Positions 16,980 through 35,686 of a stretch of 64,000 nucleotides of DNA are shown here, one piece after another. This DNA comes from Candidatus Eiseniibacteriota bacterium. GTDB lineage: Bacteria > Eisenbacteria > RBG-16-71-46 > CAZEPH01. The notes below the pieces were generated by a model. It was not told the origin of the DNA. It worked only from the letters and a program-made list of their open reading frames with translations, and made no database searches. The stretch covers positions 17,312 through 81,311 of the forward strand of contig JBGATO010000009.1 of NCBI GenBank assembly GCA_044229145.1, given 5' to 3'. The position numbers were made by a program, and so were the translations under genes. Each line of letters begins with the position of its first letter. Position 1 is the first letter of the stretch.

Positions 16980-17018
16980 CGAGTCCTCTGCAAACCACGA
17001 GGGGAGGTGACGAAGACA

Positions 17019-17162
17019 ATGGCAGCTGCGAAGAAGGCGGCGAAGAAGGTGGCCAAGAAGGCTCCGGCCAAGAAGGCCGTGAAGAAGGCCGCGAAGAAGG
17101 CGACGAAGAAGGTCGCCAAGAAGGCGACGAAGAAGGTCGCGAAGAAGGCCGCGAAGAAGTAA
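17019..17162 (+). CDS. 47-aa histone H1-like Lys/Ala-rich protein (not in the ORF track)
   Basis: [59 protein letters not shown], 22 Lys, no acidic residue, followed by a terminator. Confidence 0.85.
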   Translation: MAAAKKAAKKVAKKAPAKKAVKKAAKKATKKVAKKATKKVAKKAAKK

Positions 17163-31031: not shown

Positions 31032-32420
31032 ATGAAGCGCACGCGTGTCGTGATCCAAGGGGCCGGTGGCCGCGACTTCCACAACTTCAACGTCCGGTAC
31101 CGCGATCGCGAAGAGTTCGAGGTGGTGGCCTTCACCGCCGCCCAGATTCCCGACATCGACGACCGGACCTATCCGGCCGTGCTCGCCGGCTCTCTCTATA
31201 AGAAGGGCATCCCGATCCGGCCGGAGGCGGACCTCGCCCGGCTGATCGTCGGCGAAGGCATCGACCAAGTCGTGTTCTCGTACTCGGACGTCCCGCACAC
31301 CACGGTCATGCACCACGCGTCGATGGTGAACGCGCTCGGCGCCGACTTCGTGCTGATGGGCACCCGCGAGACGATGCTGCGCAGCAAGAAGCCGGTGGTG
31401 GCGATCTGTGCCGTGCGCACCGGTTCCGGCAAGAGCCAGACGACGCGCCGGGTGTGCGAGCTGCTCAAGGCCCGCGGCCTCAAAGTCGCGGCGATCCGTC
31501 ACCCGATGCCCTACGGCGACCTCTCGAAGCAGATCGTCCAGCGCTTCGCCACCTACGCCGACCTCGACAAGCACCACTGCACGATCGAGGAGCGCGAGGA
31601 GTACGAGCCGCACATCGACACCGGCACGATCGTCTACGCCGGCGTCGACTACGGGAAGATCCTCGCCGCCGCCGAGGCGGAAGCCGACGTCATCGTGTGG
31701 GACGGCGGCAACAACGACACGCCGTTCTACTGGCCGGACCTCCACATCGTGGTGGCCGACCCGCACCGCGCCGGTCACGAAGTCACCTATCATCCGGGCG
31801 AGACGAACATCCGCATGGCCGACGTCGTGGTGATCAACAAGGAGACCACGACCACCTACGCGAACATCGAGGCAGTGCGCCAATCGGTCTTCTCGCTGAA
31901 CCCGCGGGCGCGAATCGTTGATGCAGCCAGCCCCATCTTCGTGGACAATGGCGACGCGCTGCGCCACAAGCGCGTGCTGGTGGTCGAAGACGGACCGACG
32001 GTGACGCACGGCGAGATGGCGTACGGCGCCGGCTGGGTCGCCGCGCAGAAGTACGGCGCGGCCGAGATGATCGACCCGCGGCCGTTCGCGGTGGGCTCGA
32101 TCGCCGCCGCGTACAAGAAGTACACGCACCTCGAGCGCGTCCTGCCGGCGCTCGGCTACGGCGACACGCAGGTCAAGGAGCTGGAGAAGACGATCAACCG
32201 CTCCGACGCCGACGTCGTCGTGGTGGCGACGCCGATCGACATCCGGCGCGTCGCCAAGCTGACCAAGCCGGCGGTGCGCGTGCGCTACGAGCTCGCCGAG
32301 ATCGGCGCGCCGACGCTGAACGACATGCTCGCCGAGATCTTCGACGAGGAGGCGACACCCTCCGCGAACGGCTCGGCGAAGAAGGCCACGAAGACCACGT
32401 CCAAGAGGAGCCGTCGATGA
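31032..32420 (+). CDS. COG2403-type P-loop protein (often annotated GTPase or cyclic 2,3-DPG synthase-like; probable arginine synthetase ArcE family)
   Basis: GAGGAG RBS, GAGGRDFHNFN, AFTAAQIP, AVRTGSGKSQT, RHPMPYG, TIEEREEYEPH, WDGGNND, EDGPT. Family recognised from memory. Confidence 0.75.
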   Translation: MKRTRVVIQGAGGRDFHNFNVRYRDREEFEVVAFTAAQIPDIDDRTYPAVLAGSLYKKGIPIRPEADLARLIVGEGIDQVVFSYSDVPHTTVMHHASMVNALGADFVLMGTRETMLRSKKPVVAICAVRTGSGKSQTTRRVCELLKARGLKVAAIRHPMPYGDLSKQIVQRFATYADLDKHHCTIEEREEYEPHIDTGTIVYAGVDYGKILAAAEAEADVIVWDGGNNDTPFYWPDLHIVVADPHRAGHEVTYHPGETNIRMADVVVINKETTTTYANIEAVRQSVFSLNPRARIVDAASPIFVDNGDALRHKRVLVVEDGPTVTHGEMAYGAGWVAAQKYGAAEMIDPRPFAVGSIAAAYKKYTHLERVLPALGYGDTQVKELEKTINRSDADVVVVATPIDIRRVAKLTKPAVRVRYELAEIGAPTLNDMLAEIFDEEATPSANGSAKKATKTTSKRSRR

Positions 32421-33580
32421 ATCTGTACGAGTTCCAAGCGCGCGAGCTGCTGCGGCAGGGGGGGATCCCGGTGCCGCGCGGCGAGGTCGCGCGTACCGCC
32501 GCGGAGGCGCGCGCCATCGCCGAGCGCACGCCCGGGCTCCTGGTCATCAAGGCGCAGGTGCACGCCGGCGGCCGCGGCAAGGCCGGCGGCGTGAAGCTGG
32601 CGCGCACGCCGGACGAGGCGCACACGCACGCGGCGAACATCCTGCAGCTCACCATCAAGGGACTGCCGGTACGCCAGGTGCTGGTCTCGAGCGCCGTCGA
32701 CATCGCGCACGAGTACTATGTCTCGATCCTCATCGACCGCGCGGCGAAGGCGCCGATGCTGATGGCGAGCTCCGCCGGCGGCATGGACATCGAGGAAGTC
32801 GCGGCGACGGCGCCGGAGAAGATCGTCAAGGTCGGTCTCTCCGCGGATCGCCCGATGACGCAGGCGGAGGCCGACGATGTCGCGGCGCGTCTCGGATTCA
32901 CCGGACACGCGGCGCGGCAAGCCGCCGACATCTTCCGCAAACTCGAGACGGTGTTCTGGCAGAGCGACGCGTCGCTCGTCGAAGTGAATCCGCTCGTCGT
33001 GTCGCCCGATCAGGCGGTGTGGGCGGTGGACGCAAAGATCTCGCTCGACGACAACGCGCTCTTCCGGCACAGTGATCTCGAATCGTTGCGCGACGAGTCG
33101 GCGGAGGATCCGCGTGAAGTTCAGGCGCGGCATGCCGATCTTTCTTTCGTCGGACTGCAAGGTGCGATAGGCTGTTGCGTGAATGGTGCAGGACTCGCGA
33201 TGGCCACGATGGATCTCGTGAAGTACTTCGGCGGCGAACCGGCGAACTTTCTCGACATCGGCGGTTCGAGTAATCCGACGAAGGTCGTCAACGCGATGAA
33301 GATCCTCACCAGCGATCCCGATGTGCGCGCGGTGCTGATCAACATCTTCGGTGGCATCACGCGCTGCGACGATGTGGCGCGCGGAATCCTGACGGCGCTC
33401 GACGAACTGACGATCACGCTGCCGATCGTGATCCGCCTGACCGGGACGCGCGAAGCGGAGGCCAAGGAACTGCTCGAGAAGGAAGGCCGCGGACGCCTCA
33501 TGTGGGCGTCGACGATGGACGAAGCCGTGCAGAAGGTCATCAAGGCTGCCGGCGGGACGGTCAAGGGGGTGCGCTCGTGA
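32417..33580 (+). CDS. sucC: Succinate--CoA ligase subunit beta
   Basis: [58 protein letters not shown]. Confidence 0.97.
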
Positions 33581-35151
33581 GCATCCTGATCGACCGTTCC
33601 ACCCGCGTCCTCGTCCAGGGCATCACCGGCCGCGACGGTTCGTTCCACGCCCGCTCCATGAAGGCGTACGGCACCCAGGTGGTCGGGGGAGTGACACCCG
33701 GCAAGGGTGGCCAGTTCGTCGACGACATGCCGGTGTTCAATAGTGTCGCCGAAGGGCGCGCCGCCACCGGCGCCAACGCCACCTGCATTTTCGTCCCCGC
33801 GCCGTTCGCCGCGAAGGCGATCCTCGAAGCGGCGGACGCCGGCATCGAGTTCATCGTCGCCATCACCGAGGGCGTGCCCGTCCTCGACATGTCGAAGGTG
33901 TGGAAGGCGCTCCAGGACAAGCCGAAGACACGGCTGCTCGGCGCCAACTGTCCCGGCCTCATCACGCCGGGCCAGTCCAAGATCGGCATCATGCCGGGCC
34001 ACATCACGACGCCCGGACCGATCGGCCTCGTCTCGCGCTCCGGCACGCTCACCTATGAAGTGGTATGGGCGCTCACCGAAGCCGGCCTCGGCCAGACGAC
34101 CTGCGTCGGCATCGGCGGCGACCCGATCAACGGCACCAACTTCCTCGACGTGCTGCGCATGTTCGAGGCGGATCCGGCCACCAAGGCCGTGGTGATGATC
34201 GGCGAGATCGGCGGCAATGACGAAGAAGTCGCCGCCGAGTTCATCCGCACACAAATGACCAAGCCCGTGGTCGGATTCATCGCCGGCCAGACCGCCCCGC
34301 CTGGCCGCCGCATGGGCCACGCCGGCGCGATCGTCACCGGCAACTCGGGCACCGCGGAATCGAAGATCGAGGCGTTCCGCCGCGCCGGCGTACCGGTGGC
34401 GCGCATCACCTCGGAGATTCCGGGACTCATTCGGCAGGTCATGGCGAAGCGCGGCGCAGCGAAGCCCGCGCCGAAGAAGGCCACGCCTGCCAGCAAGACG
34501 TTGGAGGACGGCGCGAAGCGGCGCGCGAAGGCATCGTCGGTGAAGACGAAGCCCACCCCCGCCGCCAAGGCCGCGTCTGCGAAGACGAAGGCGACCGCGA
34601 ACAAGGCGAAGACAGCACCGTCGGGGAAGACGGCGCCCAAGGCTGCATCGTCGGTGAAGACGACGCAGAAGTCTGCCGTGTCCGCGAAGCGCGCATCCTC
34701 CACGAGACCGGCTGCGCACGGAAAGGCGCAGCCCGGTCGCCCCGCCGGCTCGGCGGCCGTGAAGACGGCCAAGGCGTCCGGTGGGTCACGCGTCACGTCC
34801 GAACGGTCGGGCGGGACGCGTCGCGCGTCGAGCTCCCAGGCAGGAACGCGCACGGAGACCACCGCACCCAAGACGCAGAAAGCGTCTCGGACTACCGTGG
34901 GAGGAAGAATGGCAAAGACTGCTGCTCCGAAGAAGGCTGCCAAGAAGGCGGCGAAGAAGTCGACCGCCAAGAAGGCGGCGAAGAAGGCCACCAAGAAGGC
35001 CACGAAGAAGGTCGCGAAGAAGGCCACCAAGAAGACGGCCAAGAAGGCGACGAAGAAGGCCGTGAAGAAGGTCGCGAAGAAGGCTCCGGCCAAGAAGGCG
35101 GCGAAGAAGCGCACCGCGAAGAAGGCCGCGAAGAAGGCCGCCAAGAAGTAA
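33577..35151 (+). CDS. sucD: Succinate--CoA ligase subunit alpha with a ~236-aa Lys/Ala-rich C-terminal extension
   Basis: [39 protein letters not shown] (phospho-His). No stop after the normal end near 34440. Confidence 0.93.
34909..35151 (+). CDS. Nested in-frame 80-aa histone H1-like protein at the end of sucD
   Basis: GGGAGGAAGA-ATG internal start; [13 protein letters not shown]...[10 protein letters not shown], 37 Lys and no acidic residue. Confidence 0.65.
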
Positions 35152-35254
35152 CTCGCGGACCACTCGCCCGTCGCCGGCCGCGCCACACGCCCTGGGAGCA
35201 GGACGCGCGCCGGGGGCGGGCGAGCTCCGTATTCATCGCATGAAGGAGGGAGTA

Positions 35255-35686
35255 GTGCAGACGCTGTTCATGATCAAGCCGGATGGGGTGCAGCGTAACC
35301 TCACCGGCCGCATCCTTGCCCGGATCGAAGAGGCCGGTTTCACCATCCGCGGAGTCAGCCTGCAGCAGATGTCCCAGGCCGACGCGGAGGAGTTCTACGC
35401 CGTTCACAAGGAGCGGCCCTTCTTTCCCGACCTCGTGTCCTACATGACGTCCGGGCCGATCGTCGTCTGCGTGCTCGAGCACGACAACGCCGTGCAGCAC
35501 CTCCGCGACACCATCGGTGCGACCGACCCGGCGGAAGCCGCGCCGGGCACCATCCGCAAGGAGTTCGGTCTGTCGAAGCAGATGAACTCGTGCCACGGCT
35601 CGGACTCGCCGGAGAACGGCCAGATCGAGATCGCCTACTGGGTGAAGCGTGGCATCAAGCTGACGCCGGAGAAGGTGTCGGCGTAG
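35255..35686 (+). CDS. ndk: Nucleoside diphosphate kinase
   Basis: [47 protein letters not shown] follows AAGGAGG (alternative ATG at 35240). Confidence 0.96.

Follow-up and report, generated by a model that had tools for sequence, protein, structure and literature searches.

H1-like basic tails on bacterial DNA-handling and granule proteins are already known, as are in-frame internal translation starts in E. coli. Here we describe a locus in which a basic tail and a candidate internal start are combined on a Krebs-cycle enzyme and accompanied by a free-standing twin gene, a combination that is new. The gene is sucD, encoding the alpha chain of succinyl-CoA synthetase (SCS), at positions 33577..35151 of a stretch of 64,000 nucleotides from Candidatus Eiseniibacteriota bacterium (GenBank assembly GCA_044229145.1, contig JBGATO010000009.1, positions 17,312 to 81,311 of the forward strand). 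The whole stretch is referred to as the window and its genome as G000. Full-text literature searches, whose coverage excludes subscription journals, brought up no publication that describes SCS with a lysine-rich tail.

The closest described counterparts of the candidate start are internal starts mapped in E. coli by Ribo-RET. The internal start of arcB is reported to lie at a domain boundary and its product ArcB-C to be confirmed by western blot, while the internal product of rpnE is reported to be 98% identical to the free-standing protein YpaA (bioRxiv 10.1101/520783). The sucD site resembles both in that, within the 3' part of the gene and exactly where one domain meets the next, an in-frame start codon stands behind a Shine-Dalgarno (SD)-like sequence and would release a C-terminal module. 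It resembles the rpnE/ypaA pair in that another gene of the same genome encodes a free-standing paralog of the module. It differs from them in that initiation was measured in E. coli whereas the sucD site is known from sequence alone, and in that the module is a low-complexity polycation and not a folded domain. A further case is the gene of the Cas10d large subunit, from which a small subunit is reported to be translated internally (bioRxiv 10.1101/2020.04.18.045682). As is proposed for sucD, one gene thereby gives two products by in-frame internal initiation; the two Cas10d products, however, join one complex, and no such relation is known for sucD.

The tail has described parallels of its own. 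In Pseudomonas, AlgP and PhaF are reported to carry a KPAA-repeat tail that binds DNA and positions polyphosphate or polyhydroxyalkanoate granules (PMC9239181). SucD shares with them a long, disordered Lys/Ala-rich tetrapeptide repeat with a composition like that of the H1 C-terminal tail, joined to another domain, but its repeat unit is (A/T/V)xKK with little proline and the partner is an enzyme of the tricarboxylic acid (TCA) cycle. The Pfam and NCBIfam profiles gave no sign of homology to the KPAA domain, and low-complexity alignments were no better than those of shuffled sequences. A lysine-rich tail of PAKKA repeats has been reported for Ku of M. smegmatis (PMC3553676) and an H1-like domain for DdbA of Streptomyces (PMC3643593). 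Topoisomerase I proteins with similar tails were among the matches that we obtained in the protein collection. Lysine-rich tails are borne by mycobacterial HupB and topoisomerase I. All of these have in common with SucD a modular basic tail on a folded protein and fast evolution of the repeats; unlike SucD, they act on DNA, and we know of no nucleic-acid role for SucD.

Chlamydial Hc2 (hctB) has been described as an H1-like protein of lysine-rich repeats (PMC2848022). Like Hc2, the sucD module is small and extremely Lys/Ala-rich, with a size that varies with repeat number; unlike Hc2, whose repeat is a pentamer, it repeats a tetramer, and neither the module nor its twin matches an HC2 profile. 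Searches of Pfam (E up to 10) and NCBIfam (E up to 1) returned no family for the 80-residue module, the 234-residue tail or the 47-residue open reading frame (ORF) of the twin. Assignment to HC2 (PF07382 / NF038052; NF038053) was rejected, as module, tail and twin are all unmatched by these profiles. Only the tail of one related protein, P0022 (see below), matches HC2, and it does so below threshold, scoring 34.8 bits where the cut-off is 40. An earlier sequence-only reading of the locus had called the module histone-like, which is borne out by composition (Lys/Ala-rich, short repeats, no acidic residues) but not by any match to a family profile.

The SucD fusion and its parts

The following features are considered, with coordinates given in the window (GC3, GC content at third codon positions; pI, isoelectric point; MFE, minimum free energy).

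33577..35151, plus strand: sucD as a whole, 524 codons and stop, a core followed by a 234-residue polycationic tail
33577..34446, plus strand: SucD catalytic core, residues 1-290 (Pfam CoA_binding, Ligase_CoA)
34447..34908, plus strand: irregular K/A/S/T/R-rich linker of 154 residues, net charge about +33, GC3 0.82
34900..34904, plus strand: SD-like GGAGG, ending 4 nt before the internal ATG
34909..34911, plus strand: internal in-frame ATG, candidate start, codon 445 of sucD
34909..35151, plus strand: 80-residue (A/T/V)xKK repeat module and stop; if made alone 8.35 kDa, pI 11.9
17003..17162, plus strand: free-standing paralog with GGAGG at 17003-17007, ATG at 17019 and stop at 17160-17162, 47 codons of xxKK repeat
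32417..33580, plus strand: sucC, succinyl-CoA synthetase beta (Pfam ATP-grasp_2, 2.9e-65, and Ligase_CoA)
35155..35230, plus strand: very stable hairpin after the stop of sucD and ahead of the ribosome-binding site of ndk, MFE -54.1 kcal/mol
35255..35686, plus strand: ndk, nucleoside diphosphate kinase (Pfam NDK, 2.7e-52)

SucD is recorded at 524 aa in the protein collection (P0001). Its core contains the Pfam domains CoA_binding (residues 7-99, 2.5e-26) and Ligase_CoA (residues 152-271, 2.6e-24) and is 60-70% identical to proteins named SucD by their sources. The translation includes a GHAGA-type motif, which we take to be the phosphohistidine loop of SucD and which is kept in all relatives aligned. 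The 234-residue tail carries a net charge of about +71.

The SucD-polycation fusion is genuine, since the same frame is found in a second genome and independent contigs run over the junction. In G001, one genome of the same genus, sucD is likewise continuous (536 aa, core 91% identical, tail of 247 residues), and all indels that separate the two linkers are in frame. Contigs spanning position 34909 exactly or with 1 mismatch were obtained from three RNA libraries of three studies (X3 34542-34998, X4 34606-34988, X6 34683-34958), and a contig from a DNA run crosses the junction as well (X5 34780-34959). Being assembled, the RNA-library contigs prove that the joined sequence exists in RNA libraries, and not where transcripts end or how abundant they are; for this organism they are patchy over the sucD core. 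A depth of hundreds to thousands over 34901-35216 in X3, X4 and X6 is due to many organisms other than this one, which have lysine-repeat genes of their own, and is uninformative on the expression of this sucD. Loose ends of the kind ...GAGGTGA...ATGGC... in these data indicate that free-standing lysine-repeat genes of many other organisms are abundant in these sludge and sediment RNA libraries.

An error of assembly or sequencing might hide a stop or a frameshift, in which case sucD and a small H1-like gene would be separate. The draft genome is indeed fragmented (164 contigs, 89% complete) and the repeat region hard to assemble. This explanation nevertheless appears very improbable to us given the independent genome G001 with the same frame, the agreement of four independent runs with exact or 1-mismatch contigs across 34542-34998, and three related proteins, P0020, P0021 and P0022, that are continuous fusions too.

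The start-like junction at the repeat boundary

The sequence-only reading had placed an in-frame SD and ATG at 34909, at the boundary to a repeat with 37 Lys in 80 residues, and every one of these details is correct. The element GGGAGGAAGA occupies 34899-34908, immediately before the ATG at 34909-34911, which lies 1332 nt or 444 codons after the sucD start at 33577 and hence in the sucD frame. The junction reads ACC GTG GGA GGA AGA ATG GCA AAG ACT GCT GCT CCG AAG AAG. The ATG specifies the only Met within the SucD tail, and the switch from the irregular K/S/T/A linker to the regular xxKK repeat falls exactly on it. The module consists of 80 residues, among them 37 K, 27 A, 8 T and 3 Pro but neither D nor E; its mass is 8354 Da and its pI 11.9, and its KK pairs follow each other at 4-residue intervals starting at module residue 8. 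On the DNA level Tandem Repeats Finder detected an array at 34928-35148 in which a 12-nt unit is present in 17.7 copies.

The spacing between SD and ATG is short, about 4 nt as previously noticed, and the same spacing is found in 44 of the 320 SD-led 5'-proximal ATGs of the genome. Within 2530 putative genes an in-frame GGAGG-N3-10-ATG occurs at 126 sites at least 100 codons into the gene; at a depth of 200 codons or more, 53 such sites are left. These 53 correspond to 0.43% of the 12,210 ATGs at that depth, compared to 7.6% for ATGs near 5' ends. At gene 5' ends GGAGG ahead of ATG is enriched by a factor of about 10 to 18, showing that SD sequences are in use in this genome, which tends to avoid them in gene interiors. 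An SD and an ATG by themselves are weak evidence for a start.

The junction is further marked by its codons and by its RNA. When 943,012 internal 9-codon windows are ranked by codon usage, the one with GGA GGA AGA ATG GCA AAG ACT GCT GCT belongs to the lowest 0.083%, a figure that derives from a crude gene set and is inflated by out-of-frame stretches. GGA accounts for 7.5% of Gly codons, AGA for 0.4% of Arg, GCA and GCT for 5.1% and 2.3% of Ala, and ACT for 2.0% of Thr; GC3 in the genes of the sucC-sucD-ndk operon is about 90%, with 0.82 in the linker. The 60-nt RNA window at ATG 34909 has a folding energy of -12.1 kcal/mol, which makes it more open than 98% of the 900 windows compared over sucC-sucD-ndk, a rank comparable to that of the sucC start (99.8 percentile). 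The junction thus has the anatomy of a start site, composed of SD, ATG, rare codons and open RNA.

Such an anatomy might also be a coincidence. The tail would then have grown in place by slippage of the 12-nt repeat from an older basic tail, Met and GGAGG would have arisen by chance within a Gly-Gly-Arg-Met stretch, and the resemblance to the twin would reflect low complexity. The array is slippage-prone and differs in copy number between the two genomes, and dozens of internal SD-ATG sites arise by chance, all of which is compatible with this explanation. That an outlier in codon usage and low RNA structure both fall on the exact repeat boundary argues against it, and we regard it as unlikely.

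Selection, relatives and the free-standing twin

Substitutions were compared between G000 and G001 by the Nei-Gojobori method, with dS and dN denoting synonymous and nonsynonymous changes per site.

Core: dS 0.50, dN 0.056, dN/dS 0.11
Linker: dS 0.23, dN 0.23, dN/dS 1.0
Repeat module: dS 0.47, dN 0.096, dN/dS 0.20

The protein sequence of the module is under purifying selection, which indicates that the module is translated and that it matters. In the linker only the composition and an open frame seem to count. All three codon positions of the linker change at an equal and reduced rate, its dS of 0.23 being half of the 0.50 of the core; this may be due to strong bias in the Lys and Ala codons or to constraint acting on the nucleotide sequence. 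An antisense ORF at 34053-35186 on the minus strand was considered as the origin of the odd linker substitutions and rejected, being the kind of shadow frame, with shared third positions, that a GC-rich gene commonly has; its translation consists of Phe/Ala repeats. The number of repeats in the module differs between G000 and G001.

Conservation of SD and ATG in relatives had been proposed as a check on the internal start, and in G001, the single congener, both are identical. From ACCGTGGGAGGAA through ATGGCAAAGACTGCTGCTCC the two genomes agree save for one base between SD and ATG (AGA to ACA). The junction block is one of only two 36-nt linker blocks that are at least 97% identical to G001 and ranks in the top ~3% of 36-nt windows. 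Coming from one congener comparison, this conservation is no more than suggestive.

Among 5.8 billion proteins, five long-tailed SucDs close to this one were found, this gene included.

P0001 (this gene): 524 aa, core identity 100%, mid-tail Met motif GGRMA
P0002 (G001): 536 aa, core identity 91%, mid-tail Met motif GGTMA
P0020: 546 aa, core identity 79%, mid-tail Met motif GGGGTMA
P0022: 476 aa, core identity 73%, mid-tail Met motif ATMA
P0021: 442 aa, core identity 72%, no mid-tail Met motif

All other matches closer than 71% are 288-295 residues long, and the nearest named short SucDs belong to Gemmatimonadota. Metagenome scans and a search of 206 genomes of the class did not recover the contigs that encode P0020, P0021 and P0022. 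The recurrence of GG.MA and TMA motifs in relatives points to a conserved Met-Ala site in the mid-tail and speaks against a chance Met. Growth in place gains some support from the closest outgroups, which are already long-tailed (132-257 aa), and from the fact that tails of different genera are unalignable, alignments being no better than those of shuffled tails.

Within the class, 30 sucD loci were compared. The two of the same genus have tails of 234-247 residues, nine carry basic R/K tails of 26-79 residues, all from two families of the class, and 19 end at most 9 residues past the core. As an alternative to a nested start, it had been suggested that sucD captured a formerly separate nucleoid gene, with relatives to be searched for sucD, a stop and then a separate H1-like ORF. 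A capture of this kind fits the paralog and the start-like junction, but the search for the intermediate was negative, a K-rich ORF downstream of sucD being present in 0 of the 30 loci (1.3-1.7 kb examined).

Broader and biased scans over 250 loci yielded 35 tails of more than 10 residues and 25 of more than 30 residues. Basic tails of 40-145 residues were found on SucD at loci L049, L109, L044, L218, L226, L246, L235 and L266; assigned by locus title, their lengths are 145 (L049) and 75 (L109) in Zixibacteria, 88 in GN15, 48-90 in Gammaproteobacteria/Steroidobacteraceae and at least 40 in Verrucomicrobiota. This pattern points to repeated independent gain; basic tails on SucD are thus a recurrent and convergent feature. 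The two Zixibacteria proteins show the same kind of tail on the same enzyme with no Met at the onset of the repeats; compared to them, the lineage studied here adds the start-like junction and the free-standing twin. The nested start accordingly appears to be particular to this small lineage.

The sole other match of the 80-residue module in the genome is an ORF of 47 residues, 22 of them Lys, located 18 kb upstream in the same window and too short for the protein collection. In both genomes the gene comes after one for a response regulator, the G001 ortholog having 32 residues; the element CGAGGGGAGGTGACG ahead of it is identical in the two, and the repeat number differs. The twin gene and the sucD module both start with Met-Ala behind GGAGG, which again speaks against coincidence. 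The twin is probably a real small protein of a nucleoid type or one that binds polyanions. As judged from its two genomes, the genus thus encodes a small basic protein that stands free, and a module of the same type attached to SucD. Lysine-rich segments occur on other proteins of the same genome as well: C-terminal tails are borne by a myo-inositol-1-phosphate synthase (L289, G000:C60:39638-41110, minus strand) and by a protein with DUF1028 and TPR (L290, G000:C77:13206-14642, minus strand), and a SWIB/MDM2-domain protein (L291, G000:C158:11865-12464, plus strand) starts with a KKAA repeat in its N-terminal part.

Upstream, the sucC stop shares bases with the sucD start GTG 33577 in a GTGA overlap, and the RNA around this GTG (-29.5 kcal/mol, 3rd percentile) is among the most structured windows of the operon. 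Overlap and structure together fit translational coupling of sucD to sucC rather than independent initiation. Downstream, ndk directly follows sucD in 29 of the 30 class loci. Its likely start here is GTG 35255, preceded by AAGGAGG and 5 nt and separated from sucD by a spacer of 100 nt; the ndk ORF of G001 starts at the equivalent Val. The hairpin at 35155-35230 is more stable than expected (z = -3.9; 0 of 200 shuffles equally stable) and largely conserved in G001 over the aligned part, and it has no clear U-tail. It could act as a terminator, as an attenuator or as a stabiliser of the 3' end of the sucCD message. Rfam gave no match within 34300-35400, hairpin included.

Proposed origin and possible function of the tail

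sucD encodes a fusion of three parts, namely the SCS alpha core, a drifting basic spacer of 154 residues and a selected xxKK module of 80 residues. We propose that the module begins at a preserved translation-initiation region, in which GGAGG is followed after 4 nt by ATG-GCA, the codons are rare ones ending in A or T, and the RNA is open. The best explanation of this start-like junction is that a small basic-protein gene was joined to sucD as its 3' end and brought along its ribosome-binding site and start codon. Ribosomes would start at 34909 at some level, giving two products, the full-length SucD with its tail and a free protein of about 8.4 kDa with a charge of about +38. The chances that the internal start of this SucD-polycation fusion is still in use seem to us about even. 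Two products from one locus had been the interpretation of the sequence-only reading; it has since been strengthened by the start anatomy, the conservation in the congener, the twin gene and the purifying selection on the module, whereas initiation itself is what we infer from them.

Several observations weigh against a working start. The RNA contigs reach at least 226-367 nt upstream of the ATG, with no sign of a separate short transcript, and no sigma-70-like promoter was found in 34300-35300. The same genome has 53 other deep in-frame SD-ATG sites, and its assembly contains no 16S rRNA from which to read the anti-SD. Conservation at the DNA level refers to one congener, and at ~20% linker divergence eight fixed bases would stay intact by chance in about 17% of cases. 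In the more distant relatives, the tail of P0021 is without any Met, and the motif frequencies in 20,000 shuffles per tail (GG.MA 1.2% and TMA 5.1% for P0020; TMA 1.85% for P0022) come from a post hoc test made on the protein sequences. Finally, 22 further loci with tails of more than 30 aa have no Met where the lysine repeats begin, indicating that the tail works without a nested start.

These points lead to a second explanation, according to which only the fusion protein is made. SD and ATG would then be the fossil of a small basic-protein gene, or of a copy of the twin, that was joined to sucD; they would be kept by slow drift and yield no meaningful amount of free protein, and the tail would only tether SucD. 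We consider this quite possible, if on the whole doubtful. It agrees with a linker frame that stays open in G000 and G001 alike, every indel being a multiple of three, with RNA contigs that continue over the junction, and with how common basic SucD tails without an internal Met are (9 of 28 other class loci, and Zixibacteria, GN15, Gammaproteobacteria and Verrucomicrobiota). The linker divergence of ~0.23 per site is low enough for a fossil to persist. A fossil does not readily account for the seven rare A/T-ending codons, all of which are kept in both species despite an operon GC3 of ~90%, nor for the survival of GGTMA and TMA motifs in far more diverged tails. In addition, an unstructured GGAGG-N4-AUG would be expected on physical grounds to bind 30S subunits.

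With or without a free product, the tail most likely ties SucD to DNA, RNA or polyphosphate; by analogy to the tails of AlgP, PhaF, Ku and HupB, it would tether the enzyme to a polyanion. Starting from the fusion with a working internal start, a more far-reaching version can be formulated, in which the nested start is a selected device. One mRNA would then supply both a TCA enzyme tethered to the nucleoid or to polyphosphate and a free H1-like coating protein, the supply of which would be tied to sucCD expression. The ~60 tail lysines are borne by the very enzyme that acts on succinyl-CoA, and their succinylation could therefore neutralise the charge and release the enzyme, making the tail a metabolic sensor on bacterial chromatin. 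We put this forward as speculation and think it decidedly unlikely.

Should the tail tether SucD to DNA, RNA or polyphosphate, these uncultured bacteria would arrange their central metabolism in space in a way that has not been described. If the internal start works, the locus would offer a clear natural example of one gene nested within another, with a separate gene encoding the short product as well, and would show a gene fusion caught with both of its expression routes intact.

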